The notes: generated by a model from the sequence alone, not told the origin. Positions 5,115-54,058 are shown, counted from the first letter of the stretch. The stretch is 64,000 nucleotides of DNA from an uncultured Acidobacteriota bacterium (GCA_963707935.1 CAVPRN010000001.1:145554-209553); one strand, 5' to 3'. Numbers and translations are program-made.

Positions 5115-5197
5115 GTAGGGGCGGGCCCTCGCGGCCGCCCGGCGTCGCAGTCGTGGCACGTCAGAAGCCGGCGGGCGGGGACGAGCCCCGCCCCTAC
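5115..5197. repeat. GC-rich palindromic (REP-like) element
   Basis: GTAGGGGCGGG at 5115-5125 pairs with CCCGCCCCTAC at 5187-5197. The inner hairpin GCGGGCGGGGACGAGCCCCGCCC recurs in the opposite orientation at 49894-49920. Confidence 0.5.
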
Positions 5198-29386: not shown

Positions 29387-29413
29387 TCGACCTCCTGAAA
29401 GCGCGCCGATTCT

Positions 29414-31036
29414 ATGCGCCGTCCCCCTTCCGGGCCCGCGGCGCCCGGTGATATCCTTCCCGGCGTGAGGGTGGTCCTGGTACACGTCCGCGACCCTCAG
29501 TTCTACGCGATTCCGGGAAGCGTGCGCGGCAAGAACGGCCGCCTGCAGGTCATGGGCTTCCCCCCCATCGGCATCATGGTTCTGTCTGCGGTCCTGAAGC
29601 GTGCCGGCCACGAAGTGCGCCTCTTCGACCAGGCGAACCCCGCGACCCCCAACGACGTCATCGTCGCGGATGTCGGCGCCTGGAAGCCGGATCTCGTCGG
29701 CATGAGCTTTCTCTCGACGACGAGCTACCCTCATGCCAAGATCCTCGCCCGTTCCCTCCGGGCGGCATACCCGGACTTGAAGCTCGCGTTCGGCGGCGTC
29801 TTCGCCACGCTGAACGCGGAGCTCGTCAAGAAGCAGGTCCACGAGGTGGATTTCGTGTGCCGCGGAGACGGCGAGCAGCTCCTCCTCGACCTCCTGGACA
29901 ATCTCGAGGACCCCTCCGGGGTCGCCGGCGTGACCTGGCAGGAGCCCGACGGCACGGTGCGCCAGAACCCGCCGCGCCCCCTCGACCGCAATCTCGATCA
30001 GTGGCCCTTCCCGGACCGCGAGAGCCTCGATCTCGACTTCGTCGAGTCCATGCCGCTCGACGTGCCCGTCGTGCTTTCGCGCGATCGTTACACCACCATG
30101 CAGACCTCGCGGGGGTGCCCCTGGCCCTGCGTCTTCTGCGACATCCCCATCTTCAACGAGGGGAAATGGCGCTCGCGCAGTCCCGAGCACGTCGTGGCCG
30201 AGCTCAAGCGGCTCGAAGAGGACGGCTACGGCTCGGTCTACTTCGTGGACGATCACTTTCTTCTCCAGCCCAAGCGCATCGAGGCGATCTGCAAGGGCAT
30301 CGAGCGAGAAGGACTCAAGATCAAATGGGGCTGCGAGGGGCGGGTGGACTCCGTCTGCATGGATCTCTTTCCGGCGATGGCCAGGGCCAACTGCCGCACC
30401 TTGATGTTCGGAATCGAGAGCGGCAGCCAGAAGATCCTCGACCGCCTGAAGAAGGAGCAGACGCTCGCCCAGACGGAAGCCGCGGTCCTCGCCGCGAAGA
30501 AGGCGGGCATCGAGATCGTCCACGGCTTCTTCGTCGTCGGGAACCCCGACGAGACGGAAGAGGACATGGTGGCGACCTTCCGGTTCGCGTCGCGGCTGCC
30601 GCTCGACACGTTCGCCTTCAACCGTCTGTGCGTCTACCGGGGAACGCCGCTCTGGCAGGAGTACCTGCAGCGCGGCCTCGTGAAGGACGAGACCGACTGG
30701 TACAAGTACTTCAAGTGCTCCTCGATCGATCCCACGGTTCTTCCGGGCCCGACGATCCACGCGATCCGCTCCCGCGAGCTGAAACGTCTGATCCTCTACA
30801 AGTTCGTGCGTTATCCTCGCCAGGCTTTCCGCCTCATGCGGCGATTGAGCCAGTCGATGCCGGTCGGCGACATCTTCTACATGCTCGTCAAGCCCTTCCT
30901 CGGAAAGAAGAGCGGCCAGACGAAGGCCGAGGTCCTTTCGCGCGCCGTCGAACACCACGAGTCGATGAGCGCGGCGGCCGAGCGCACGCAGGTCCCGGAG
31001 GAGGCGCTGGCGGGAGTTTTCGCTCCGCCGAGCTGA
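29414..31036 (+). CDS. B12-binding-domain radical SAM enzyme
   Basis: N-terminal cobalamin-binding-type domain (PPIGIMVLSAVLKRAGHEV..DLVGMS) and the radical SAM cluster motif SRGCPWPCVFCD. The start may instead be the GTG at 29465. Confidence 0.85.
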   Translation: MRRPPSGPAAPGDILPGVRVVLVHVRDPQFYAIPGSVRGKNGRLQVMGFPPIGIMVLSAVLKRAGHEVRLFDQANPATPNDVIVADVGAWKPDLVGMSFLSTTSYPHAKILARSLRAAYPDLKLAFGGVFATLNAELVKKQVHEVDFVCRGDGEQLLLDLLDNLEDPSGVAGVTWQEPDGTVRQNPPRPLDRNLDQWPFPDRESLDLDFVESMPLDVPVVLSRDRYTTMQTSRGCPWPCVFCDIPIFNEGKWRSRSPEHVVAELKRLEEDGYGSVYFVDDHFLLQPKRIEAICKGIEREGLKIKWGCEGRVDSVCMDLFPAMARANCRTLMFGIESGSQKILDRLKKEQTLAQTEAAVLAAKKAGIEIVHGFFVVGNPDETEEDMVATFRFASRLPLDTFAFNRLCVYRGTPLWQEYLQRGLVKDETDWYKYFKCSSIDPTVLPGPTIHAIRSRELKRLILYKFVRYPRQAFRLMRRLSQSMPVGDIFYMLVKPFLGKKSGQTKAEVLSRAVEHHESMSAAAERTQVPEEALAGVFAPPS

Positions 31037-33858: not shown

Positions 33859-33955
33859 TGAAAGCGACGACCGCTTCTAAGGTGTGTCCTCGATTCTATC
33901 GGTGAAGGGCTCCCCTTTCCGGCGCGCGCCCGCCGCCTGTAGTAACGTCCGTGCC

Positions 33956-40284: not shown

Positions 40285-40710
40285 TCACAACGGATCGTGA
40301 ATTCGCAGACCGGGAAAGACGACGAATCCCTTGTCGTGAGTCCAGATTTCGGCTGCCCCGTTGTCGAAGGCGGTCAACGCAATTTGAAGATCGAAGATCC
40401 TCGTCCCCTGGACGCCGAGCTGTCCCGCAACCTGGACGAGGCGGCCGGCAAAGCCGTCACCGGGCCCCCAGACGTGACCCCCGGCCTGCCACAGGGCGCG
40501 GAGGAATTTTCCCGCCTGTTCCGCCGTCGAGGGTCCTCCCACCGAGGCCGGATGCGTTACGACGCTCCAGAACTCGGCCACACTCGGCTGCGTGATTCCC
40601 CAGCCGCGCTCGTCCCGGCTGGCGAGCTCGATCGCCTGCCTGGCGGGGCGGTGTTCCGCGAGCCCCGAGCGGTGAGCGTAGACGAGCAGGTTCGTGTCGA
40701 TCGCGATCAT
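40285..40710 (-). CDS. vapC: PIN-domain toxin (VapC)
   Basis: 141 aa. Has IAIDTNLLVYA (Asp), VAEFWSV (Glu) and IFDLQIALTA...WTHDKGF (Asp residues). 4-nt overlap with the upstream antitoxin. Confidence 0.9.
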   Translation of the reverse strand: MIAIDTNLLVYAHRSGLAEHRPARQAIELASRDERGWGITQPSVAEFWSVVTHPASVGGPSTAEQAGKFLRALWQAGGHVWGPGDGFAGRLVQVAGQLGVQGTRIFDLQIALTAFDNGAAEIWTHDKGFVVFPGLRIHDPL

Positions 40711-40946
40711 CGGTGTCCGGCGAGCCAGTCGTGCATGGCCGCCCGATCGGATATGTCGAGCCCCTGCGGCAGACCTCCCTGCGCCGTGACCCAGTGGATC
40801 GGCCTCCGGCGCACGCGGCCTCCGCCGCGAGACAGCTCCCGGCGCAGGCTCCGCTCGAAGATCTGACGCAGAGTCTCGCGTGATTCCGCGGCCTTCTTCT
40901 TCGCGGCGATCAGAAGATCATCCGGCAGGTCGATCGTCGTCTTCAT
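40707..40946 (-). CDS. vapB: VapB-type antitoxin
   Basis: ATG at 40946 (MKTTIDLPDDLLIAAKKKAAESRETLRQIFERSL...). 79 aa. Typical VapB N-terminus. ATGA overlap with vapC. Confidence 0.8.
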   Translation of the reverse strand: MKTTIDLPDDLLIAAKKKAAESRETLRQIFERSLRRELSRGGGRVRRRPIHWVTAQGGLPQGLDISDRAAMHDWLAGHR

Positions 40947-40975
40947 ATGGGAAACAATATTACCATAAATATGGG
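40947..40975 (-). promoter_or_regulatory. AT-rich -10-like box immediately upstream of vapB (possible leaderless transcript)
   Basis: The minus strand reads CCCATATTTATGGTAATATTGTTTCCCAT-ATG. TAATAT (40962..40957) lies 10 nt before the ATG, which is a striking AT island in GC-rich DNA. Confidence 0.35.
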
Positions 40976-41004
40976 AGAGCATTCGCCGTCTCCGCCTCGA
41001 GCTC

Positions 41005-41034
41005 GGAGCGCCGGCGAACGACGGTCAGCGTCAT
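41005..41034 (-). pseudogene. Short decayed kinase 5-prime stub overlapping the K4 stop
   Basis: ATGACGCTGACCGTCGTTCGC... begins at 41034 in an ATGA overlap with the K4 TGA. It resembles the K3 5-prime end ATGACGCTCGCCACCGGCTCGCG for about 25 nt only. Confidence 0.35.
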
Positions 41035-43637
41035 CGCATCACCCCTCGCCAATTCAAGAGGACCCGGAATCGCTCGGAGTCGAAATCCCGAGTCGGCACG
41101 ACCATCAGAAACCGCTGCCCATCCGCCGACACCGCGTACTGCAGGCTCACGTTCGTGAGCGTCACGGACGTCCGGAACAGGGGCTGCGGCGGTCCAGCGG
41201 AAAAAGAAGATCCGGTTGTGACCGGCACGGCCATGAGCCTGCCGTCGAGCGCCACGAAGAAGATCTCCTTGCCGTCCCTGCTCCAGAGAGGCTGCTGCCC
41301 GCCCGAATCCGAGATCCGCCACTTTTCGTCCGTCATCGGAAACCGCCTTACGAAGATCTCGGACTGGCCGGTTTCATCCGAGCCGTAAACGAACCATCGG
41401 GCATCCGGTGAGAAGTGCGGCGTGCGCTCGCTGAATTCGGTCGAGAGAAGAAGCTCCGGCTTTGCGTCACTCTGCAGGTCCTTCACTCCGATGTCGAAGT
41501 CGCGCGCCACCCTCGTGTAAAGCATGTAGCGGCCGTCGGAAGAGATGTCGTGAGGCGTGACGAAGCTGTCGACGACAACGATTTGCTCTTCTCTGGAACC
41601 GCCTCGAACGGTCCTCCGGCGGATTTCGTACCGTTCCCCTTCATACCGGTAGAAGACGGTTCCCCCGTCCGGCGCCCAGATCGGCAGGAACGCCGGCTCG
41701 GCAAAGGGCGCCGTCACGCCGCGCTCGATGTCCACCATGCCGATTGCCCGCATGCCCGTCTCCACCGAGAGATAGCTCAACCCGGCGGTCCGGTCGTCGG
41801 GGGAGAGCCTCACGCCCAGGACCTCGCCCACGGAGCCGACCGTCCCGACCGGGTTACCCCGGCGATCGAACCAGGTCAGCCGCCGCTCCGCGCTGTTCGC
41901 CCGAAAGACGAGGATCCTGGAGTCGGAAACGGCGAAGAGGTCGCGGTACGATCCCAGGTCCCCTCGCATGATTGGGCGCGTTATGGTTTGCGGTTGACCC
42001 CCGAGTTCCCCGCGGTCGAGGTCGACGTGCTGCGCGAGGAGCGCCCCGCCTCGAACGAACAGGAGGGAGTCAGGCGGCACGAAAACGCCGGTGCCCGAGT
42101 TGCGAAGCAGGAGCCTGCGGCCGCGCGCGGCCAGGGACGCCATGTAGGTGCCCGTCGTTTCCGCCTTCCCCGTCTTGACGAAGAAGAGAAAGCGCCGGCC
42201 ATCGGGGAGAAACTGGGGCCAGCGATGCAGGAGGTCGCCCTTCTCGAGCTCCGTCACGGGCTCGGCCGGCCCGCCCGAAGCCGGAACGCGGGAAATGACC
42301 CCCACAGCCTTCTGCGTGAAGAGAATGTCGCCGTTCGCTCCCCAGCATCCGCCGCGCCCGAGCTCGGCGTCGGACAGGTTTTCGACCGAGCCCGTCGCCA
42401 GGTCGATCCTCCGGAGCTTGCCCCGCGCCACGAAGCCGAGCGACCGGCCGTCCGGCGACCAGAACACCGTTTCCGCCGAGTCCGTGCCCGCAAGAGTGCG
42501 GACCTCCTCGGAACCGAGCTCGCGGATGCGCAGGAGCGACTTGCCTCCGGAGATGCCGACGAATGCGAGCGTTCGGCCGTCCGGCGAAAGGGCAAAGAAT
42601 TCCGTGAGCACGGTTCGCTCCGGCGGAACGATCGAGAGCTGCATACGCTCCGGGGAAGCAAGAGCGGGGCGCCTTGCGCGAAGGGTGATGTCCGCAGCGA
42701 CCAGGAACGCAAGGGCCAGCGCCGCCCACGACAGCCACGATCGGCGAATCGGCGGGCCGGAAGCGGCGACGCCGGTCTGCGGCCCGTCGGATATCCAGTG
42801 CAATTCCCGTTTGATGTCGGCGGCGCTCTGCCAGCGGTCTTCGGGATCCTTGGCGAGGCAGGTCTTGATCACCCTTTCCAGAGCGGGCGGGTTGGTGGGT
42901 TGGATCGTCGAGATCGGCGCCGGCTCCTCCTTCATGATCGCGGAGATCAGCGACGCCTGGGACGCGCCCGAGAACGCCTTCCGCCCCGTCGCCATCTCGT
43001 AGAGCACCGCGCCGAAGGCGAAGATGTCGGTCCTCGCGTCCGCTTCCTTGCCCTCGAGCTGCTCGGGCGCCATGTACTGGAACGTTCCGAGAATCGTCCC
43101 TTCCTGGGTGAGTCCCTGCTGCGTCGGGAGCGAGGTCAGGGTTCCCTTTCCCTTCGGCCCCTCGAATCCCTTCGCCAGGCCGAAGTCGAGAAGCTTGACC
43201 CCCGTCTTCGTCAGCATGACGTTGCCGGGCTTCAGGTCCCGGTGCACGATCCCCTGCCGGTGCGCCTTGTCCAGAGCCTCGGCGATCTCCTGTCCGTAGC
43301 GCAGCGTCTGCTCGAGCGGCAGGGCGCCTTTGGCCAGACGCTCCGAAAGCGTCTCGCCTTCGAGAAGCTCCATGACCAGGTACTCGGTCTCGCCCTCGCG
43401 GCCGACGTCATAGAGCGCGCAGATGTGCGGATGGGAGAGCTGCGAAATCGTTCTCGCCTCCCGCTCGAAGCGCTGGCGCACTTCGTCGGACGAGGCCATC
43501 GAGGACGGAAGCACCTTGACCGCCACCGTTCGCTCCAGACGCGTGTCCCGAGCCTTGTACACTTCGCCCATTCCCCCGGCGCCGAGAGGCGTGAGGATCT
43601 CGTAGGGCCCGAGGCGCGTGCCGGCCGCGAGCGTCAT
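41031..43637 (-). CDS. K4: Ser/Thr protein kinase - TM - TolB/PD40 beta-propeller receptor
   Basis: I take the start as the ATG at 43637 (MTLAAGTRLGPYEIL), which overlaps the PIN gene stop (ATGA). The track start at 43739 lies inside the PIN gene. Kinase motifs as in K2, to which it is closely related along its whole length. Confidence 0.92.
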   Translation of the reverse strand: MTLAAGTRLGPYEILTPLGAGGMGEVYKARDTRLERTVAVKVLPSSMASSDEVRQRFEREARTISQLSHPHICALYDVGREGETEYLVMELLEGETLSERLAKGALPLEQTLRYGQEIAEALDKAHRQGIVHRDLKPGNVMLTKTGVKLLDFGLAKGFEGPKGKGTLTSLPTQQGLTQEGTILGTFQYMAPEQLEGKEADARTDIFAFGAVLYEMATGRKAFSGASQASLISAIMKEEPAPISTIQPTNPPALERVIKTCLAKDPEDRWQSAADIKRELHWISDGPQTGVAASGPPIRRSWLSWAALALAFLVAADITLRARRPALASPERMQLSIVPPERTVLTEFFALSPDGRTLAFVGISGGKSLLRIRELGSEEVRTLAGTDSAETVFWSPDGRSLGFVARGKLRRIDLATGSVENLSDAELGRGGCWGANGDILFTQKAVGVISRVPASGGPAEPVTELEKGDLLHRWPQFLPDGRRFLFFVKTGKAETTGTYMASLAARGRRLLLRNSGTGVFVPPDSLLFVRGGALLAQHVDLDRGELGGQPQTITRPIMRGDLGSYRDLFAVSDSRILVFRANSAERRLTWFDRRGNPVGTVGSVGEVLGVRLSPDDRTAGLSYLSVETGMRAIGMVDIERGVTAPFAEPAFLPIWAPDGGTVFYRYEGERYEIRRRTVRGGSREEQIVVVDSFVTPHDISSDGRYMLYTRVARDFDIGVKDLQSDAKPELLLSTEFSERTPHFSPDARWFVYGSDETGQSEIFVRRFPMTDEKWRISDSGGQQPLWSRDGKEIFFVALDGRLMAVPVTTGSSFSAGPPQPLFRTSVTLTNVSLQYAVSADGQRFLMVVPTRDFDSERFRVLLNWRGVMR

Positions 43638-44074
43638 GGCCCCTCCGGAGTCCGGACGGCTGGCTCGTCCTCGAGGAACCGCTCGAAAGCCTCGCGATCC
43701 CAGGTCACCAGTGTGGCCGCGCGCGCCTTGCGGGCGCACGCCCCGATGAGAGCGTCATAGACCGCGCCGCCCCCGATCCCGGCGTCCCGGCTGCGGCGCA
43801 AGGTGGCACGATAGTCGCCGGCAGCCAGCGCGACCAGCCGCGTCTGCCCCCAGTTGGCTTCGATCAGCGCCAGGGCGTCGTCGGGACGCAGCCGGTGAGG
43901 CTCGGGGAGCCGCGTCAGGACCGAAAAGGCTTCGGCCAGCGAGTGCGCCGCCAGGACCAGCTCTTCCCCGGCCGCGTCGCGGCGCTCGATCTCGCGGCGG
44001 GTGGCGTCGTGATGACGGTGCCACGTGCACACGGCCGCGACCAGGCAGGTCGTGTCGAGCAGGTACGAGCTCAC
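43634..44074 (-). CDS. vapC: PIN-domain toxin (VapC-like)
   Basis: 146 aa. Has YLLDTTCLVAAV (Asp), SLAEAFSVLTR (Glu) and VYDALIGACA...LVTWDREAF (Asp residues). Overlaps the AbrB-type antitoxin by 4 nt. Confidence 0.85.
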   Translation of the reverse strand: MSSYLLDTTCLVAAVCTWHRHHDATRREIERRDAAGEELVLAAHSLAEAFSVLTRLPEPHRLRPDDALALIEANWGQTRLVALAAGDYRATLRRSRDAGIGGGAVYDALIGACARKARAATLVTWDREAFERFLEDEPAVRTPEGP

Positions 44075-44337
44075 TCGCCCTCGTCCGAGCCTCGCCGGCG
44101 GAGGGAGTCGAGCGTCCGCGCGACCGCCTCCCCGGTCAGGGACGGCACGCGCCTGCGAGGGACGGCAACCGTCAGCGATCCCCGCTTGACGAGCTTCACG
44201 TCGAGCGGCTCGGGCTCGATCTCGATCCGGCCGTCTGTGACTCGAATCGTCAGCGTCGCCCCCGGCCGGATTCCCGCTTCCTCCCGAATCCGTTTGGGCA
44301 CGACGAGCCTCCCGGCCCGGTCAATGGTTGTTTTCAT
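44071..44337 (-). CDS. AbrB/SpoVT/MazE-fold antitoxin
   Basis: 88 aa. MKTTIDRAGRLVVPKRIREEAGIRPGATLTIRVTDGRIEIEP is a swapped-hairpin AbrB-type DNA-binding domain. Confidence 0.85.
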   Translation of the reverse strand: MKTTIDRAGRLVVPKRIREEAGIRPGATLTIRVTDGRIEIEPEPLDVKLVKRGSLTVAVPRRRVPSLTGEAVARTLDSLRRRGSDEGE

Positions 44338-44365
44338 GGTACCGATACTACCATTTCATATGGGT
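44338..44365 (-). promoter_or_regulatory. AT-rich -10-like box / palindrome immediately upstream of the AbrB-type antitoxin (possible leaderless transcript)
   Basis: The minus strand reads CCCATATGAAATGGTAGTATCGGTACC-ATG. TAGTAT (44350..44345) lies 7 nt before the ATG. There is an ATGGTA...TACCAT inverted repeat. The sequence is similar to the vapB upstream box. Confidence 0.35.
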
Positions 44366-44389
44366 CTCGCCGCGCCATGGCCGCTCGAG

Positions 44390-44465
44390 AAGGTCCTTCC
44401 TCTTCCCCGCGAGAAGCTCTGAGCGGACCGCAGGGGCCGAGGCGCGTGCCCGCGGCCAGCGTCAT
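44390..44465 (-). pseudogene. Decayed kinase 5-prime fragment between K5 and the AbrB/PIN cassette
   Basis: ATGACGCTGGCCGCGGGCACGCGCCTCGGCCCC (MTLAAGTRLGP) starts at 44465 in an ATGA overlap with the K5 stop. Its first 33 nt match the K4 5-prime end at all but 4 positions, and weaker similarity continues for about 40 nt more. No kinase body follows. Confidence 0.55.
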
Positions 44466-47134
44466 CTCTTTTTCAACTCCGTGAACCAGTTCAAGACGAC
44501 CGTGATCGGTGCGGCGTTGCTCTCTTCGGTAGGAGTGTCGACGAGAAAGCGCTGGCCGTCGGCCGAAACGGTGTAGGGAATGACGGGAACCTCGGAAACA
44601 CGAAGCTCGAAGAGCGCCCGGGGTTGGCCGGCCTGAAGAGTGGAAGCGGTCTGGACCTCCACGGCCATGAGTTTTCGGTCCGCGGCGCGATAGAAGAGCT
44701 CCTTCCCGTCGCGCCGCCATCTCGGATAGGAGCCGCCCGCAGTCGAGATCTGCCACTTGCCGCCGGAAGCCGGAAAGGCCTGCACGTAGACCTCAACCCT
44801 CCCCGACTCATTCGAGGAATAGGCCATCCATCGCCCATCCGGAGAGAATTGTCCTTGACTCTCGTTGAACTCGGTTCGCAGGAACGGAGTCGGTTTGCGG
44901 TCTCCGGAAAGCGGCAACACCCAAAGATCCGTCCCTGTCCCCCGACCCTGGTCCTCATAGACGATGAATCGCCCGTCGGGAGACCAGTCCGTGACGAATT
45001 TCGACGTGTCGGAGGAAAGCAGCAGCTCCTCGCCGCCGGCCCCGTTCGAGAGCTTTTGATACAGGTTGCTCATGCCATCCTGATCGGAGGCGAAGGCGAT
45101 CCGACTTCCGTCGGGCGACCAGGTCGGATGCGTCTGGTTGGACGAATCGAATGTCAGGCGTGAGACCGTGGAGCGTGCGAGGTCGACGAGCCAGATGTCG
45201 TCGGTCCCTGTCTGGGGATCGCGGCGCTGCACGGCGATGAGTTTTTCGTCCGGTGAGAGCCTCGGGCGCACGTACAAGCCGGGCCCGCCCGCCGACCCGA
45301 TCCGCTTTCCTCCGCGATCGAACCAGACGAGCTCGCTCATCGGCACGCCCCCGGCGCTGCCCGTCCGATAGGCGATCACGCCGTTTTCCGAGGCGGACAA
45401 CGTGGTCCGGCCATTGCCCGGGTTGTAGGCCACTTGTTCGGCGACGCGAGCCGGCTCGCCCGAGAGCTGGAGGCGATTCGAATCGAACCGCTGGGCCATC
45501 AGCGTCCCCTGCTGGACGAAGAGCAGATAGCCCGGCGGCGTATACGTCGCCCTCACTTCGGTCCTCAGCACGAGGCCCGCCTCTTTGGAGGCGAGCGAAT
45601 GGACGTAGATGCCGCGGTTCTCTCGTCGGCCGCTCAGGGCGAGATAGAGGAAGTGACGGCCGTCCGGCAGAAACTGAGGCCATAAGTGGCCCGTCTCCTG
45701 CCGCGATCGGTCGAGCGCCGTCACGTCGGCCGGGACGCCACCGGTCGCGGAGACGCGTGCCAGCGCGCCGACGCGATTCGGTGCGAAGACGATCACTCCG
45801 TCGCGGTTCCACGTGCCGCCATTCCCTTCGGGCGCATCGCACAGCGCTTGCGGGGGACCGCCGAATGCGTCGATCTTCTTCAACTTTCCCGGGGTGAAAA
45901 ATCCGAGGAAGCGACTGTCCGGAGACCAGAACGGAAAGGAGGCATCTTCCGTGCCCGCCAGTTTCTGTGCGGCGAGCGAGTCGAGAGGACGAACCCAGAG
46001 CTGACTGGTCCGATCCAACGTCGTGGCCACGAAGGCAAGGTAACGGCCATCGGGTGAAAGAGCGGCCTGAGGAGCCGCTGGCCCCCCGCCGTGGGTCGTT
46101 TGTTCCGGAGGAAAAACGGAAAAGCGAATCGGACGCGGTTCGAGGGGCGACTCTCGAAAGTGAACGAAGGCGATTGCCAGCGCCGCGAGCAGGGAAGCAC
46201 CCATGAGGACCCAGGCCAGCCGCTCGAGATTCCGTCGAGTCGGGCCGACGGCCATTGGTGCGGCGAGGCTAGCGGCCGAGGCCTCCGAGATCCACTGAAG
46301 CTCTCGCCTGATGTCGGCGGCGCTCTGCCAGCGCTCCTCCGGGTCCCTGGCAAGGCAGGTCTTCACGACGCGGTCGAGCGCCGGAGGACTCGCCGGCTGC
46401 TCCGCAGAGATCGGCTCCGGCTCGGTGTGCAGGATGGCGCCGATCAGCGACGCCTGGGTCGTTCCGGTGAAGGCTTTCTTGCCTGTCGCCATCTCGTAGA
46501 GCGTCGCGCCGAAGGCGAAGATGTCCGTGCGCGCGTCCGCTTCCTTTCCCTCGAGCTGCTCCGGCGCCATGTACTGGAAAGTCCCCAGGATCGTGCCCTC
46601 CTGTGTGAGTCCCTGCTGCGTCGGAAGCGAGGTCAGACTCCCCTTTTCCTTCGGCAACTCGAACCCCTTCGCGAGGCCGAAGTCGAGCAGCTTCACCCCC
46701 GACTTCGTCAGCATCACGTTGCCGGGCTTCAGGTCCCGGTGCACGATCCCCTGCCGGTGGGCCTTGTCGAGCGCCCCGGCGATCTCCTGCCCGTAACGCA
46801 GCGTCTGCTCGAGCGGCAGCGCCCCCTTCGCCAGCCGATCCGTCAGCGTCTCGCCTTCGAGAAGCTCCATGACGAGGTACTCGGTCTCCCCTTCCCGCCC
46901 CACGTCGTAGAGCGCGCAGATGTGGGGGTGCGAGAGCTGGGAGATCGTTTTCGCCTCACGCTCGAACCGCTGGCGGACCTCGGGAGACGAGGACATCGCC
47001 GCCGGAAGGACCTTCACCGCGACCGTCCGCTCCAGGCGGGTGTCCCGCGCCCGGTACACCTCCCCCATCCCTCCCGCGCCGAGCGGCGACAGGATCTCGT
47101 AGGGGCCGAGGCGGGAGCCGGCGGCAAGAGCCAT
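44462..47134 (-). CDS. K5: Ser/Thr protein kinase - TM - TolB/PD40 beta-propeller receptor
   Basis: Kinase motifs as in K2. TM helix LAWVLMGASLLAALAIAFV. PD40 blades. The ATG directly abuts the K6 stop. Confidence 0.92.
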   Translation of the reverse strand: MALAAGSRLGPYEILSPLGAGGMGEVYRARDTRLERTVAVKVLPAAMSSSPEVRQRFEREAKTISQLSHPHICALYDVGREGETEYLVMELLEGETLTDRLAKGALPLEQTLRYGQEIAGALDKAHRQGIVHRDLKPGNVMLTKSGVKLLDFGLAKGFELPKEKGSLTSLPTQQGLTQEGTILGTFQYMAPEQLEGKEADARTDIFAFGATLYEMATGKKAFTGTTQASLIGAILHTEPEPISAEQPASPPALDRVVKTCLARDPEERWQSAADIRRELQWISEASAASLAAPMAVGPTRRNLERLAWVLMGASLLAALAIAFVHFRESPLEPRPIRFSVFPPEQTTHGGGPAAPQAALSPDGRYLAFVATTLDRTSQLWVRPLDSLAAQKLAGTEDASFPFWSPDSRFLGFFTPGKLKKIDAFGGPPQALCDAPEGNGGTWNRDGVIVFAPNRVGALARVSATGGVPADVTALDRSRQETGHLWPQFLPDGRHFLYLALSGRRENRGIYVHSLASKEAGLVLRTEVRATYTPPGYLLFVQQGTLMAQRFDSNRLQLSGEPARVAEQVAYNPGNGRTTLSASENGVIAYRTGSAGGVPMSELVWFDRGGKRIGSAGGPGLYVRPRLSPDEKLIAVQRRDPQTGTDDIWLVDLARSTVSRLTFDSSNQTHPTWSPDGSRIAFASDQDGMSNLYQKLSNGAGGEELLLSSDTSKFVTDWSPDGRFIVYEDQGRGTGTDLWVLPLSGDRKPTPFLRTEFNESQGQFSPDGRWMAYSSNESGRVEVYVQAFPASGGKWQISTAGGSYPRWRRDGKELFYRAADRKLMAVEVQTASTLQAGQPRALFELRVSEVPVIPYTVSADGQRFLVDTPTEESNAAPITVVLNWFTELKKR

Positions 47135-49864
47135 CTACTTCTTCAGCCCCGCCGTCCAGTTCTGAACGACCGTGATGGCGCTCTGCTCCTCCGGTACGAT
47201 CGTGTTGATCAGGAATCGCTGCCCATCGGCGGATACGTCGTACTGGGACCCGGCGTCGGTCGAACGGATCTGCGTGCGGAAGAGGGGCTTCGGCGCGCCG
47301 ATCTCGAAGGCCGATCCCGCCTGGACCTCGACGGTCATGAGCGTCTTGTCGGGCGCAATGTAGAAGACTTCCCTGCCGTCGCGGCGCCATCTCGGATAGG
47401 AGCCGCCTCCGTTCGAGACCTGCCATTTGCCCGAAGAGCCCTGAAACGGCCGAACGTACACCTCCGGCCTCCCGGACTCGTCCGACGTGTAGGCAATCCA
47501 CCGGCCGTCGGGAGAAAACTGCGGGGACCACTCCTGGAACGGCGTGGCCAGAAAGGGCCTCTCCTTCCGATCTGTGAAGGAGAAGATCCAGAGATCGAGA
47601 CCGGTGTTCGCCTGGGCGGAGTTGGCCTGGAACGCGATGAGTCCGCCGTCCGGCGACCAATCGGTGGGAAACCGGAAAGTCGCCGCCGGGGGCAGCAGGA
47701 GTTCGTCGTCTCCGGACCCCGAGGTCGCCCGCTGATAGATGTTGTGCCTCCCCTTTCGATTCGAAGCGAACGCGATCCGGCCGCCGTCGGGCGACCAGAC
47801 CGGGAAGAGGTTGACGGCGGGCTCGAAAGTGAATCGCGTCGAAACGCGCCGCGGCAGATCGTAGAGCCACAGGTCCAGGAGGGCCGTTTGACCATCGAGC
47901 AGAGCGGACACGACCCGCCGGCCGTCGCGCGAGATGCGAGGGTGAGTGTGGGCGGCGACCTGTCCGATCGACTCGATCGCTTTCCCGGTGCGGTCGAACC
48001 ATTGGAGCCGCGACGGGTCCCCCTGCGCGCCCGTCTGGTAGGCGAGGAGGCCGTTGTCGGAGACGGAGAACGTTCCCGACCCCTGGGCCCCGAAATACAG
48101 GACGTTCTCCGCCACGGGCGCCGCCTCGCCCGTGAACTCCAGCCGCCCGGAGTCGAAAGGCCGCGCGAGAAGCGTCGAGCCGCGCATGAAGAGAAGATGC
48201 CCGCGGGAAAGGCTCGAGGAAGGGGAATACGCGGCGTTCCCCCGCCCGGACTGGAGGAGCTTCACCTCTTTCGAATCGAGCGATCCCACGTAGAGACCGT
48301 TGATTGAATCCGGCCTGGCTTCCGCGCCCAGGAAACCGACGTAGAGGAAGTGGCGGCCGTCCGGCAGGAAGACCGGCCAGACATGCTGGTACTCGCCCCT
48401 GCCCGGGCCCAGGGACGTGACGGCGGCGGCGCCACCGCCCGAAGCGGAGACGCGATAGACCGGATCCTGGAAGGCAGGAACGAAGAGGATCACGCCGTCG
48501 CGACTCCACGTCCCGCCCCGGCCGCTCGGAGCGGCCGCGAGCGTCTGAGGAGGACCTCCCGAGGCCTCGACCCTCTTCAACTTCCCGCCGGCGAAGAAGC
48601 CGATCGAGCGGCTGTCCGGAGACCAGAACGGGCGCGTAGCCCCCTCGGTACCCGGCAGGGCCTGGGCCGAGGCGGAAGCGAACGGCCGGACCCAGAGCCG
48701 TGTCACGCCTTCCGTGGACTCCGCCGTGAAGGCAATTCGGCGGCCGTCCGGAGAGACCGCCGGGGGAGATCCTCGAAAAACGAACTGGTTCTTTTCCGGC
48801 GGAAGGATCGAGGCCTCGAACCGGGCCTGCGGCGCGGGGCGCTGGCGCAGGAGCAGAAACCCCAGCACCAGTGCGGCCGACGCGGCGGCCGCGAAAGCGA
48901 GCAGGGCCAAACGCTCGCGTCCTTTTCGAGGAAGGACATGGGGCACCGGAAGGCCCGCCTCCGATCCTTCCGCGATCCCCTTGAGCTGTTTCCCGACGTC
49001 GCCGGCCGATTGCCAGCGATCTTCCGGGTCCTTGGCGAGGCAGCCTCGGACGACGCGGTCGAGCGACGGCGGCGTCGTGGGCTGCACCTGCGAGATCGAT
49101 TGCGGCTCGTCCCGCAGGATCGCCGATATGAGACTCGCCTGGCTGTTCCCCGAGAACGCCTTCCGCCCCGTCGCCATCTCGTAGAGCGTCGCGCCGAGAG
49201 CGAAGATGTCCGTCCGCGCGTTGGCGTCCCTGCCCTCGAGCTGTTCGGGCGCCATGTACTGGAAGGTGCCGAGGATCGTGCCTTCCTGAGTGAGCCCCTG
49301 CACCGTCGGAAGAGCCGTAAGGCTGTACTTCGCCATGGGATGTTGCCCTGCGGCCGCTTGCTCTCTCCCGGCCGCGTCGAGCGGCCGCTCAAATGTCTTC
49401 GCGAGCCCGAAGTCGAGGAGCTTCACCCCCGACTTCGTCAGCATCACGTTGCCGGGTTTGAGATCCCGGTGCACGATCCCCTGACGGTGTGCCTTGTCCA
49501 GCGCGTCGGCGATCTCCTGGCCGTAGCGCAGCGTTTGTTCGAGCGGCAGCGCTCCCTTCGCCAGACGCTCCGTCAGCGTCTCGCCTTCCAGGAGCTCCAT
49601 GACGAGGTATTCCGTCTCGCCTTCGCGGCCGACGTCGTAGAGCGCGCAGATGTGCGGATGGGAGAGCTGGGAGATCGTCTTCGCCTCGCGTTCGAAGCGC
49701 TGGCGCACCTCCGGGGACGAGGACATCGCGGAGGGGAGCACCTTGATCGCCACCGCGCGATCGAGCCGCGTATCCCGCGCCCTGTAGACTTCCCCCATCC
49801 CTCCCGCGCCCAGAGGCGACTGGATCTCGTAAGGGCCGAGTTTCGTTCCAGCGATGAGCGTCAT
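47135..49864 (-). CDS. K6: Ser/Thr protein kinase - TM - TolB/PD40 beta-propeller receptor (extra insert after DFG)
   Basis: I take the start as the ATG at 49864 (MTLIAGTKLGPYEIQ). The track start at 49933 reads through a REP hairpin. Between DFGLAK and the GTFQYMAPEQ segment there is an insert, FERPLDAAGREQAAAGQHPMAKYS, that is absent from the other paralogs. Confidence 0.9.
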   Translation of the reverse strand: MTLIAGTKLGPYEIQSPLGAGGMGEVYRARDTRLDRAVAIKVLPSAMSSSPEVRQRFEREAKTISQLSHPHICALYDVGREGETEYLVMELLEGETLTERLAKGALPLEQTLRYGQEIADALDKAHRQGIVHRDLKPGNVMLTKSGVKLLDFGLAKTFERPLDAAGREQAAAGQHPMAKYSLTALPTVQGLTQEGTILGTFQYMAPEQLEGRDANARTDIFALGATLYEMATGRKAFSGNSQASLISAILRDEPQSISQVQPTTPPSLDRVVRGCLAKDPEDRWQSAGDVGKQLKGIAEGSEAGLPVPHVLPRKGRERLALLAFAAAASAALVLGFLLLRQRPAPQARFEASILPPEKNQFVFRGSPPAVSPDGRRIAFTAESTEGVTRLWVRPFASASAQALPGTEGATRPFWSPDSRSIGFFAGGKLKRVEASGGPPQTLAAAPSGRGGTWSRDGVILFVPAFQDPVYRVSASGGGAAAVTSLGPGRGEYQHVWPVFLPDGRHFLYVGFLGAEARPDSINGLYVGSLDSKEVKLLQSGRGNAAYSPSSSLSRGHLLFMRGSTLLARPFDSGRLEFTGEAAPVAENVLYFGAQGSGTFSVSDNGLLAYQTGAQGDPSRLQWFDRTGKAIESIGQVAAHTHPRISRDGRRVVSALLDGQTALLDLWLYDLPRRVSTRFTFEPAVNLFPVWSPDGGRIAFASNRKGRHNIYQRATSGSGDDELLLPPAATFRFPTDWSPDGGLIAFQANSAQANTGLDLWIFSFTDRKERPFLATPFQEWSPQFSPDGRWIAYTSDESGRPEVYVRPFQGSSGKWQVSNGGGSYPRWRRDGREVFYIAPDKTLMTVEVQAGSAFEIGAPKPLFRTQIRSTDAGSQYDVSADGQRFLINTIVPEEQSAITVVQNWTAGLKK

Positions 49865-49893: not shown

Positions 49894-49920
49894 GTAGGGG
49901 CGGGGCTTGTCCCCGCCCGC
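49894..49920. repeat. GC-rich hairpin (REP-like), same family as 5171-5197
   Basis: GTAGGGGCGGGGCTTGTCCCCGCCCGC, located 30 nt upstream of the K6 ATG. Confidence 0.5.
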
Positions 49921-49979
49921 GTTCACCGACCAAAAACGACTCGCGCCGCCGAGACTCGTGCCTACCGGGAGCACCCCGA

Positions 49980-50001
49980 CCCTCTCCCCGCGGGGAGAGG
50001 G
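49980..50001. repeat. GC-rich perfect palindrome
   Basis: CCCTCTCCCCGCGGGGAGAGGG, in the 278-nt spacer between DinB and K6. Confidence 0.45.
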
Positions 50002-50142
50002 GAAGACGAGCAACCGAAGGCGACGGGAGAGACCCAGACGGAGTCCAGGCGAGAGTGTCATGCGAGGTACGCCAACCCCGATTCTAGTTCGACGGTCGCG
50101 TCGATCGGGCGGCGCTTCCCCGCGCGGGGGAGCCCGAGCGCG

Positions 50143-50661
50143 CTACTTCACGCCCCTGGAGGGGTCCCAGGAGCCCTGCTGCTTTCGGATGTAGAGGATC
50201 TGGCCCGTGTGGTACGCGTTATGCGTGCTGATGTGCGCGATCGTGCCGTACCAGGACTTCAACTTCGTCTCGTCCGCGGCCTCGATCAGCTTCTCCAACT
50301 CGGTCATCACGGCATCGAGTCGCTTGACCGCAGCCTCCCAGCTCGCCTTGTCGGAGATCGGCACGAACGTCGCATCGTTGTCGGTGTAGGCGGGCGGCTT
50401 CTCCCCCTTGAACTTGGCCAGGTTTGCCGTGTCCCAGTACACGAGATGGCTGACCAACTGCGCGATCGAGTGATTCGCCGTTCCCTCCTTCCACGTCGCC
50501 TGCTCGAAAGTGAGTCCATCGACAGCTTTGCTGGCGGGGACGAACCAGTCCTGGTTGTTGTGCGTGGTCTTCAGCTGCTCGAGCAGGATGGACTTCAGGG
50601 TCGGCGCGGGCGCGGAGGGCGTCTGGGCGAGCAGGAGAACGGCCATAAGGATCGTGTTCAT
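50143..50661 (-). CDS. DinB-family protein with N-terminal signal-like segment
   Basis: ATG at 50661 (GGAG RBS). MNTILMAVLLLAQTPSAPAP. DinB His motifs HSIAQLVSHLVYW and HNAYHTGQILYIRK. Confidence 0.75.
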   Translation of the reverse strand: MNTILMAVLLLAQTPSAPAPTLKSILLEQLKTTHNNQDWFVPASKAVDGLTFEQATWKEGTANHSIAQLVSHLVYWDTANLAKFKGEKPPAYTDNDATFVPISDKASWEAAVKRLDAVMTELEKLIEAADETKLKSWYGTIAHISTHNAYHTGQILYIRKQQGSWDPSRGVK

Positions 50662-50786
50662 GAAGGCTCCTTCACATGGGTGTCGTGCTTCCTCTCCGGC
50701 GGAGCGTCCCTTCGCACCCACGAACTTTCAATATCCACCTCGGGAGGAACACGCATGACCACTATGGGCTGCCGGAAAAACCCGGT

Positions 50787-53450: not shown

Positions 53451-53506
53451 GGAACCTCTGGCGGGATTCTATGGGAGCCGGGCGGACGCCCGGAGAAAGC
53501 GCGGCG

Positions 53507-53986
53507 TCAGGCGGAGCGGCGGGCCCTCTCGGCGGTGGGGGGCTTGGCGACCATGTGGATCTCGGTGCCGCCCTTCTCGAAGCGGACCTCGTCCATCAAC
53601 TGGTTGATGAGGTAGATGCCGCGGCCGCCGGTCGAGAACAGGTTCTGGCCGACGATGGGACTCGGGATCTGCGCCGGATCGAAGCCCGGGCCCGGGTCGC
53701 GCACGACGATCAACATCCCGCGCGCGTGGTCGCAGGCCACACAGCACTGGACTTCCTTGGAGGGGTCGTGGCCGCTGCCGTGCTCGATCGCGTTGGCCAG
53801 GGCCTCGCGCAGCGCCAGTTCGATCTCGAACTCCTTGCCCGCGGCGCAGCCCATGTCGGTGACGATCCGCATCACGCTCTCGACGACCGGAGAGATCGCG
53901 TTGACGTCTCCGGGGAGCTTCAAGTCGACCTTGACGAGCAGGTCCTCGCTGTTGAAGTCGCAGCGCGTCAGCGGCTGGTCGGACAT
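53507..53986 (-). CDS. RsbW/SpoIIAB-like anti-sigma-factor serine kinase (HATPase_c_2)
   Basis: 159 aa. N-box EALANAIEHG, G1 box VRDPGPGFD, G2 box GGRGIYLINQLMDEV. Confidence 0.8.
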   Translation of the reverse strand: MSDQPLTRCDFNSEDLLVKVDLKLPGDVNAISPVVESVMRIVTDMGCAAGKEFEIELALREALANAIEHGSGHDPSKEVQCCVACDHARGMLIVVRDPGPGFDPAQIPSPIVGQNLFSTGGRGIYLINQLMDEVRFEKGGTEIHMVAKPPTAERARRSA

Positions 53987-54058
53987 GGCGTCCCTCCGTC
54001 GGCTGGAAGGATTCTATGACCTCGAGACCCGGAAGGATCTAGCACTTTCTGGCCAAAT

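Follow-up and report, generated by a model that had tools for sequence, protein, structure and literature searches.

A predicted VapBC-like toxin-antitoxin cassette joined to a receptor-type kinase gene in an Acidobacteriota kinase array

In a 64,000-nucleotide (nt) stretch of DNA from an uncultured Acidobacteriota bacterium (GCA_963707935.1, CAVPRN010000001.1:145554-209553; the window, with positions counted from its first letter), a series of minus-strand genes for receptor-type Hanks kinases is broken up by two small gene pairs. The bacterium, from soil, most likely belongs to the Thermoanaerobaculia. One of these, the AbrB-PIN cassette (TA2), lies between the kinase genes K5 and K4, and its sequence marks it as what appears to be a genuine type II VapBC-like toxin-antitoxin (TA) cassette, composed of an AbrB-fold antitoxin and a predicted PIN RNase, lodged in a tandem kinase array. 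The TA pair itself is ordinary, being VapBC-like with an AbrB-fold antitoxin. The reading preferred here, with a probability of roughly 0.55, takes the cassette for a functioning VapBC-like TA system whose autoregulated, leaderless promoter also feeds the joined kinase gene, which would be translated by coupling or re-initiation. The features of the cassette and its junctions, in the direction of transcription, are as follows.

44336-44364, minus strand: putative TA2 promoter/operator, with half-sites CCCATA (44364-44359), ATGGTA (44354-44349), and TACCAT (44341-44336)
44353-44345, minus strand: putative extended -10 element TGGTAGTAT, followed by 7 nt and then the antitoxin ATG at 44337
44071-44337, minus strand: AbrB/SpoVT (MazE-like) antitoxin of 88 amino acids (aa), ATG at 44337, stop TGA at 44073-44071
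43634-44074, minus strand: PIN (VapC-like) toxin, 146 aa, start GTG at 44074, stop TGA at 43636-43634
43642-43646, minus strand: Shine-Dalgarno-like GGAGG in the tail codons of the PIN gene (..PEGP; CCG GAG GGG CCA TGA), 4 nt before the K4 ATG
43634-43637, minus strand: 4-nt ATGA shared by the PIN stop and the K4 start
41031-43637, minus strand: K4, a Hanks-type Ser/Thr kinase with one hydrophobic span and a PD40/TolB-like propeller

The cassette and its linkage to kinase genes

The domain assignments of both small proteins are well supported by profile searches. The antitoxin matches PF04014 (MazE/AbrB; Pfam, E=1.4e-9) and TIGR01439 (AbrB; 43.8 bits against a cut-off of 28.3) over residues 2-44, and the toxin matches PF01850 (PIN; E=1.8e-12, 48.4 bits against a cut-off of 23.6). 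The PIN protein scores only 37.9 bits against the NCBIfam VapC model TIGR00028, for which the cut-off is 73.6, and it is therefore best placed by sequence in a divergent PIN-TA subfamily. The first-pass annotation of this DNA had given the same coordinates and open reading frames (ORFs) and a three-cistron unit with two 4-nt overlaps, all of which stand, as does its reading of the PIN/K4 junction at 43637 as ATGA. However, it had also read the antitoxin/PIN overlap as ATGA, whereas the sequence there is GTGA, the PIN gene initiating at GTG. This 4-nt overlap is found in all 22 related loci that were read, as GTGA except for ATGA in locus L019 and TTGA in L021.

Loss of the acidic residues on proper alignment had been named as the sign of an inactive toxin. 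The acidic tetrad D7, E48, D107, and D126 is invariant in 33-34 aligned sequences, even when the unrelated PIN protein of the other cassette in the window (cassette 1) is added. Database relatives of the PIN protein number 483, and the best 120 of these 483 are 76-92% identical to it and nearly all 144-149 aa long. Among 13 loci, the pairwise ratio of nonsynonymous to synonymous substitution rates (dN/dS) is about 0.14 for PIN and about 0.17 for the antitoxin, at dS values of 0.4-1.1, which is purifying selection. From the invariant acidic residues and the dN/dS of about 0.15, both TA genes look functional. Structural comparison served as weak support only, as the AlphaFold model of PIN, built on a shallow alignment, is of low confidence (predicted local distance difference test, pLDDT, 58.5). 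With this model, Foldseek returned 3zvk and 7vwo at E<=0.001, and essentially all of the next 40 matches were VapC/PIN-domain proteins at template modeling (TM) scores of about 0.6. A search of the PDB with the PIN sequence and profile detected no relative of solved structure, and sequence matches there to the "Pizza" designer propellers were rejected as spurious.

K4 itself is an unambiguous Hanks-type Ser/Thr kinase, with a Pfam Pkinase match at E=4.7e-51, a PD40 propeller, and the motifs GAGGMGEV, VAVK, HRDLKPGN, DFG, and APE all readable in its translation. The ATG at 43637 yields the N-terminus MTLAAGTRLGPYEI, with which all paralogues align at their own first residues; a longer ORF starting at GTG-43739 was rejected on this ground. 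No HipA family is among the Pfam/NCBIfam matches of K4. In PADLOC, the K4 kinase domain matches the PD-T4-6 models (E=3e-95) through the generic kinase domain only, and neither the antitoxin nor PIN matches any PADLOC model.

Counting TA-kinase junctions across databases had been proposed as a check on whether the neighbourhood exceeds chance, and the count bears this out. Scanning one genome per species gave 20 close loci, which all come from metagenome-assembled genomes of Thermoanaerobaculia/Acidobacteriota, and 13 distant loci at 38-42% identity, almost all labelled Actinomycetota; a metagenome scan found 7 further close loci and about 70 distant ones. The close set comprises 29 non-duplicate loci with PIN at least 72% identical. 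A co-oriented kinase start lies downstream of PIN within about 820 nt in 27 of these 29 loci: the PIN stop is overlapped by the kinase start (ATGA, GTGA, or TGATG) in 15, the kinase lies 7-100 nt from PIN in 9, and in 3 the distance is 309-818 nt, with further small genes intervening. In L002, the kinase is in frameshifted pieces. Upstream of the antitoxin, the 3′ end of a kinase gene is present in almost every close locus with sufficient flank. By comparison, a downstream kinase occurs at none of about 50 distant loci (PIN at most 57% identical, with at least 900 nt of downstream sequence), while nearly all of these still carry the AbrB antitoxin. The two-gene TA is thus ancestral, and the kinase linkage a derived, conserved trait of one clade, the AbrB-PIN-kinase order being conserved within one clade of the Thermoanaerobaculia.

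Promoter, operator and junction signals

A promoter-like motif conserved throughout the family lies upstream of the antitoxin. In 21 close loci, TGGTA at -17 to -13 and T at -9 from the antitoxin ATG are invariant and ungapped, with a further ATGG(C/T)A or its complement about 13 nt upstream of TGGTA and T(A/G)CC immediately 5′ of the ATG. The layout TGGTAnnnT-N7-ATG is retained in most of the roughly 70 distant stand-alone homologues. Within the window, TGNTANNNT-N7-ATG has a single match, at 44353-44335, against 0.03 expected, and TGGTANNNT occurs three times, two of them at the two antitoxin genes. The two lowest-GC 60-nt intervals of the 40-45 kb region also lie just upstream of the two antitoxin genes, with a minimum of 0.48 at TA2. 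TGGTAnnnT looks like an extended -10 element (TGnTAnnnT). As it stands only 7 nt before the ATG and no Shine-Dalgarno sequence precedes the antitoxin start, the antitoxin mRNA is predicted to be leaderless. The conserved ATGGTA/ATGGCA/TACCAT half-sites overlap both the -10 element and the start codon, and on sequence grounds these repeats are likely operator sites for the antitoxin. Antitoxin genes of other TA types in related arrays also show a -10-like hexamer, placed 6-7 nt 5′ of the ATG.

Both cassette promoters in the window (40957-40985 and 44336-44364, both minus strand) share CCCATAT..ATGGTA(A/G)TAT. This likeness may stem from an exchange of promoter and first codons between the cassettes, or it may be convergent.

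An internal promoter and start codon of its own for K4 would sever the kinase from the cassette. Scans of the PIN gene, of which the GC content is 68-78%, found no promoter-like motif, and the K4 ATG is supported by the paralogues as described above. A GGAG-type motif is present at 11 of the 15 overlapped PIN-kinase junctions. Loci with a gap between PIN and kinase carry TAGAAT (L020, L023) or TAATAT (L022) in that gap, a motif type found at none of the overlapped junctions. Terminator-like sites do not exceed chance level at the junctions, and neither the PIN-K4 junction nor the spacer between K5 and the antitoxin is predicted to fold into a more stable RNA than shuffled sequence does. Taken together, the lack of a K4 promoter motif, the GGAGG in the PIN tail, and the lack of any terminator-like site above chance make antitoxin-PIN-K4 the most economical transcription unit to propose, and antitoxin1-PIN1-K3-K2 would likewise be the most economical one for cassette 1.

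Units headed without a TA pair appear to use another signal. The motif ATAGAATC occurs four times in the window, always on the minus strand (29408-29415, 33892-33899, 53465-53472, and 54010-54017), against 0.27 expected. These copies lie a short way upstream of K1, K7, a HATPase gene, and one more gene start, and no exact copy precedes K2-K5. ATAGAATC is likely a -10 element of the host.

From these signals, the following mechanism is proposed. The TA cassette would supply its own promoter and head a kinase sub-operon, and the antitoxin, likely acting at ATGGTA/TACCAT, would repress this promoter and so autoregulate the cassette. K4 would be transcribed from the TA promoter, possibly with an added contribution from K5 read-through. 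Its translation would proceed by coupling to PIN, or by re-initiation at the end of PIN, and make use of the GGAGG there. Antitoxin, PIN, and K4 would then form a single sub-operon of which the output tracks TA autoregulation.

The recombining array and the competing explanations

The window contains at least 8 kinases in about 26 kb. ORF prediction and domain search across its 64 kb place them in a minus-strand series of paralogous genes of about 870-890 codons apiece, each encoding an N-terminal Hanks kinase domain, a single hydrophobic span, and a PD40/TolB-like beta-propeller. The remaining members of the array and the second cassette are listed below.

56731-54059, minus strand: K8, kinase-array paralogue
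53450-50787, minus strand: K7, kinase-array paralogue
49864 (ATG) to 47135, minus strand: K6, kinase-array paralogue
44462-47134, minus strand: K5, Pkinase domain, transmembrane span, and PD40 propeller; the gene upstream of the AbrB-PIN cassette, stop TGA at 44464-44462
40285-40965, minus strand: cassette 1, with putative promoter TGGTAATAT (40965-40957), antitoxin (40946-40707), and VapC PIN (40710-40285), followed after a 7-nt gap by K3
40277-37611, minus strand: K3, kinase-array paralogue, 7 nt past the cassette-1 PIN
37610-34992, minus strand: K2, kinase-array paralogue abutting K3
about 33846-31144, minus strand: K1, kinase-array paralogue

Two further genes lie within the series. A 168-aa HATPase_c_2 protein (53510-54013, minus strand; E=1.4e-27), an anti-sigma-factor-type kinase, is encoded between K8 and K7 and is adjacent to neither TA pair. 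A DinB_2 protein (50146-50727, minus strand) is encoded between K7 and K6, and the related array of L001 likewise has a DinB gene at its end. A GC-rich hairpin motif, GCGGGCGGGGACAAGCCCCGCCC, is present in the window at 49898-49920 (minus strand) and 5177-5189 (plus strand) and in L021 directly downstream of PIN, and may be a repetitive extragenic palindrome (REP)-like element; a second strong hairpin, CCCCTCTCCCCGCGGGGAGAGGG, lies at about 49978-50000.

Cassette 1 shows that the slot ahead of a kinase gene is open to other TA pairs. Its 79-aa antitoxin overlaps its PIN gene by ATGA and has no Pfam match even at E=5, so the "vapB" fold once assigned to it is putative, while its PIN passes TIGR00028 with 76 bits. 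The two antitoxins of the window both open with MKTTID and are otherwise unrelated, with BLASTP aligning the first 16 residues only, in agreement with the earlier view that the cassettes differ in their antitoxins. That the toxin-to-kinase layout occurs twice holds insofar as the cassette-1 PIN precedes K3 and its close relatives, at 74-76% identity, likewise lie within kinase arrays (unlike a relative at 63%), but not for the joining itself, as PIN1 and K3 are separated by the 7-nt gap. Besides the two cassettes of the window, at least five TA types occupy the equivalent slot of related arrays: PF09957 VapB with PIN, RHH_1 with PIN (with a TTGA overlap to the kinase), Phd/YefM with PIN, a further PIN, and a ribbon-helix-helix (RHH) antitoxin with a MazF-like partner. 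In L007 (4182-6100), three cassettes are stacked before one kinase, namely a 139-aa PIN, an AbrB+PIN pair, and an RHH antitoxin with a MazF/PemK-like protein of 107 aa.

Stop/start joining is also found array-wide. The K6/K5 and K3/K2 junctions read TAG/ATG, and the K5 and K4 stops each overlap ATGACGCTG, the start of a vanished kinase. As kinase-to-kinase junctions are joined in the same way, ATGA is no special signature of a TA-kinase pair. Relics of kinase genes lie at several points of the array, as follows.

50030-50061, minus strand: relic kinase 5′ end ATGACACTCTCGCCTGGACTCCGTCTGGG, preceded by CTAGAATC, a one-mismatch form of ATAGAATC, and lying some 170 nt ahead of the K6 ATG at 49864
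44429-44465, minus strand: 37-nt relic kinase 5′ end ATGACGCTGGCCGCGGGCACGCGCCTCGGCCCCTGCG following K5, repeat family D2, with its ATG overlapped by the K5 stop
41023-41034, minus strand: short relic kinase start ATGACGCTGACC, overlapping the K4 stop, ahead of cassette 1

The relic at 44429-44465 encodes MTLAAGTRLGP, the N-terminus of K4, and its local alignment scores 27, where shuffled sequences reach at most 14. Since it differs from K4 within these 11 codons at four third-codon positions only, it looks like the remnant of a once-coding paralogue severed by rearrangement and not like a fresh duplication. Comparable relics follow the PIN stop in L007, L014, L015, and L017. A relic as universal flank of the antitoxin, or as a target-site duplication, was rejected, as only the window, L010, and L002 show a significant one. 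Between the relic ATG at the K5 stop, which it overlaps, and a TGA overlapping the antitoxin ATG there is a 43-codon ORF (44334-44465, minus strand). As a bridge chaining K5 to the antitoxin, this ORF was rejected as chance, since in most other loci a stop closes the frame after 6-111 nt. K3 and K4 share 84% identity over 270 nt at their 5′ ends. In L025 (5001-6560), the PIN gene is split, with residues 1-101 followed by a kinase fragment (residues 86-285 and the early propeller region), PIN residues 67-143, and then an intact kinase that overlaps the stop; either the cassette was rearranged internally or the long-read assembly is at fault. The relics, non-orthologous partner kinases, varied TA types, split PIN, and similarity of kinase 5′ ends point to a recombination-prone array in which TA cassettes of any kind land, and stay, at the heads of kinase genes.

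Several of these observations weigh against the proposal that the cassette promoter drives a joined kinase. The kinase is set off from PIN by 7-818 nt in 12 of the 29 close loci and is absent from L021, so that PIN-kinase coupling is dispensable, and the overlap at the others may only reflect compaction of a recombining array. The downstream kinases are 47-77% identical to K4 across loci and are not orthologous, while PIN is about 85% identical, and they fall into two N-terminal types (…GxRLGPYEI… and …HYRILEKLGGGGMG…). Upstream of the antitoxin, the -35 region lacks conservation, and a generic sigma-70 scan called neither antitoxin gene; read-through from K6-K5 could also feed K4 independently of the TA promoter. 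The diversity of TA types in the slot argues against a specific biochemical partnership between toxin and kinase, and a generic role, as promoter module or array stabiliser, fits that diversity at least as well. The earlier argument for a functional link in place of a chance neighbour is thus upheld in its claim of non-randomness (27 of 29 against none of about 50) and weakened as a claim of specific partnership by the array-wide joining, non-orthologous kinases, and many TA types. Chance adjacency in a kinase-rich genome is very improbable: the kinase density of the window would favour it, but the contrast between close and distant loci, together with a kinase that is always co-oriented and is overlapped in 15 loci, opposes it strongly.

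A more serious competitor, though clearly the less probable one, is that the cassettes are selfish or stabilising passengers, captured at recombining kinase 5′ ends, persisting since their loss kills the cell and shielding the array from deletion, with no signalling link; the shared orientation and close joining would then be simply features compatible with a polycistronic array. The K3/K4 similarity, the relics upstream of TA2, after K4, upstream of K6, and after PIN in four other loci, the further TA types with their stacking in L007, the non-orthologous neighbours of a well-conserved PIN, and the split PIN of L025 are all expected under such capture. It accounts less readily for the GGAG motif that accompanies overlapped junctions in the PIN tail, and the linkage persists over two kinase N-terminal types with different 5′ DNA, for which homologous recombination alone is insufficient. 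Capture of passengers is compatible with the promoter-module reading, and both can be true. That the kinase controls the TA pair is unlikely. Here the periplasmic propeller of K4 would sense a cue and the kinase would phosphorylate the antitoxin or PIN, weakening the binding of the antitoxin to toxin and DNA and freeing the RNase, so that every TA-kinase unit would tie its own cue to growth arrest. The conserved linkage and two published precedents (PMC11160731; PMC13373217; see below) lend themselves to this idea, as do two residues of the antitoxin: Thr56 (window about 44170-44172) is conserved in 96% of the kinase-linked clade and is Leu in the stand-alone clade, and Thr75 is present in 100% of the former against 47% of the latter. 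These may be candidate phosphorylation sites or simply lineage markers, the clade-specific Thr perhaps mirroring lineage history, and specific recognition is hard to picture when the adjacent kinase varies by locus and many unrelated antitoxin folds take the same place. Equally doubtful is the broader extension in which Thermoanaerobaculia arrays would be sensor-effector repertoires, where a propeller cue leads the kinase to phosphorylate the antitoxin (candidate Thr56), the PIN RNase is freed and the leaderless promoter derepressed, and recombination at kinase 5′ ends shuffles sensors and effectors.

Relation to known systems and significance

VapBC systems are among the most abundant TA systems, and their triggers are largely unknown. 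With VapBC pairs having an AbrB/SpoVT-fold VapB (Rickettsia felis VapBC2, Shigella/plasmid VapBC, and Neisseria FitAB in the wider PIN-TA group), the AbrB-PIN cassette shares the two-gene operon with a 4-nt overlap, a PIN with four acidic residues, an N-terminal DNA-binding antitoxin domain, and palindromic sites over the promoter, which are here candidates from sequence. It differs in its third cistron, a receptor Hanks kinase joined to the toxin stop clade-wide. Three-gene TA systems, such as the toxin-antitoxin-chaperone (TAC) system HigBA-SecB and HipBST, have a third gene co-transcribed with the TA pair, which the window resembles in its third gene and, presumably, in co-transcription; however, here that gene encodes no chaperone and no toxin kinase of the HipA type, varies by locus, and belongs to a large paralogous receptor-kinase family.

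To our knowledge, the kinases that phosphorylate VapB in Mycobacterium tuberculosis are not described as encoded beside TA operons. In that organism, phosphomimetic substitution at Ser/Thr phosphorylation sites of VapB27 and VapB46 lowers VapC and DNA binding (PMC11160731). Ser/Thr phosphorylation is thus connected to a VapBC module there, whereas here the kinase is the next cistron and phosphorylation is hypothetical. A kinase-substrate pair resembling CapK/CapS activates a VapC-like toxin (PMC13373217), and in both settings the kinase gene is accompanied by genes for a VapC-like toxin and for a DNA-binding protein of repressor or antitoxin-like type. There, the kinase controls the toxin. However, CapK/CapS consists of a GHKL anti-sigma-factor-type kinase and a STAS protein, while the window has a membrane Hanks kinase with a PD40 propeller and an AbrB antitoxin, and so falls outside the CapK/CapS type.

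A further parallel is with the superintegrons of Vibrio, in which TA cassettes stabilise repeated cassette arrays. Several unrelated, co-oriented TA pairs are interspersed in a recombination-prone repeat array in both cases, but here no integrase or attC site is seen, paralogous kinase genes form the repeats, and stop-to-start joining ties the TA to its neighbour. In the searchable literature, the coverage of which is incomplete, no description was found of TA-Hanks-kinase arrays in Acidobacteriota, of clade-wide stop/start joining to receptor Hanks kinases, of repeated use of a slot by several TA families, or of the family-wide TGGTAnnnT-N7-ATG promoter.

A clade with VapBC-like cassettes joined to receptor kinases would offer a natural system in which to ask whether TA autoregulation serves as a promoter module for signalling genes, and whether membrane kinases signal into TA modules. 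TGGTAnnnT-N7-ATG would provide a clean, testable case of a TA promoter that is leaderless, is embedded in its operator, and is conserved from Acidobacteriota to Actinomycetota. Were the cassettes only passengers, the arrays would still show TA pairs colonising, and perhaps stabilising, recombining arrays of paralogues outside integrons.

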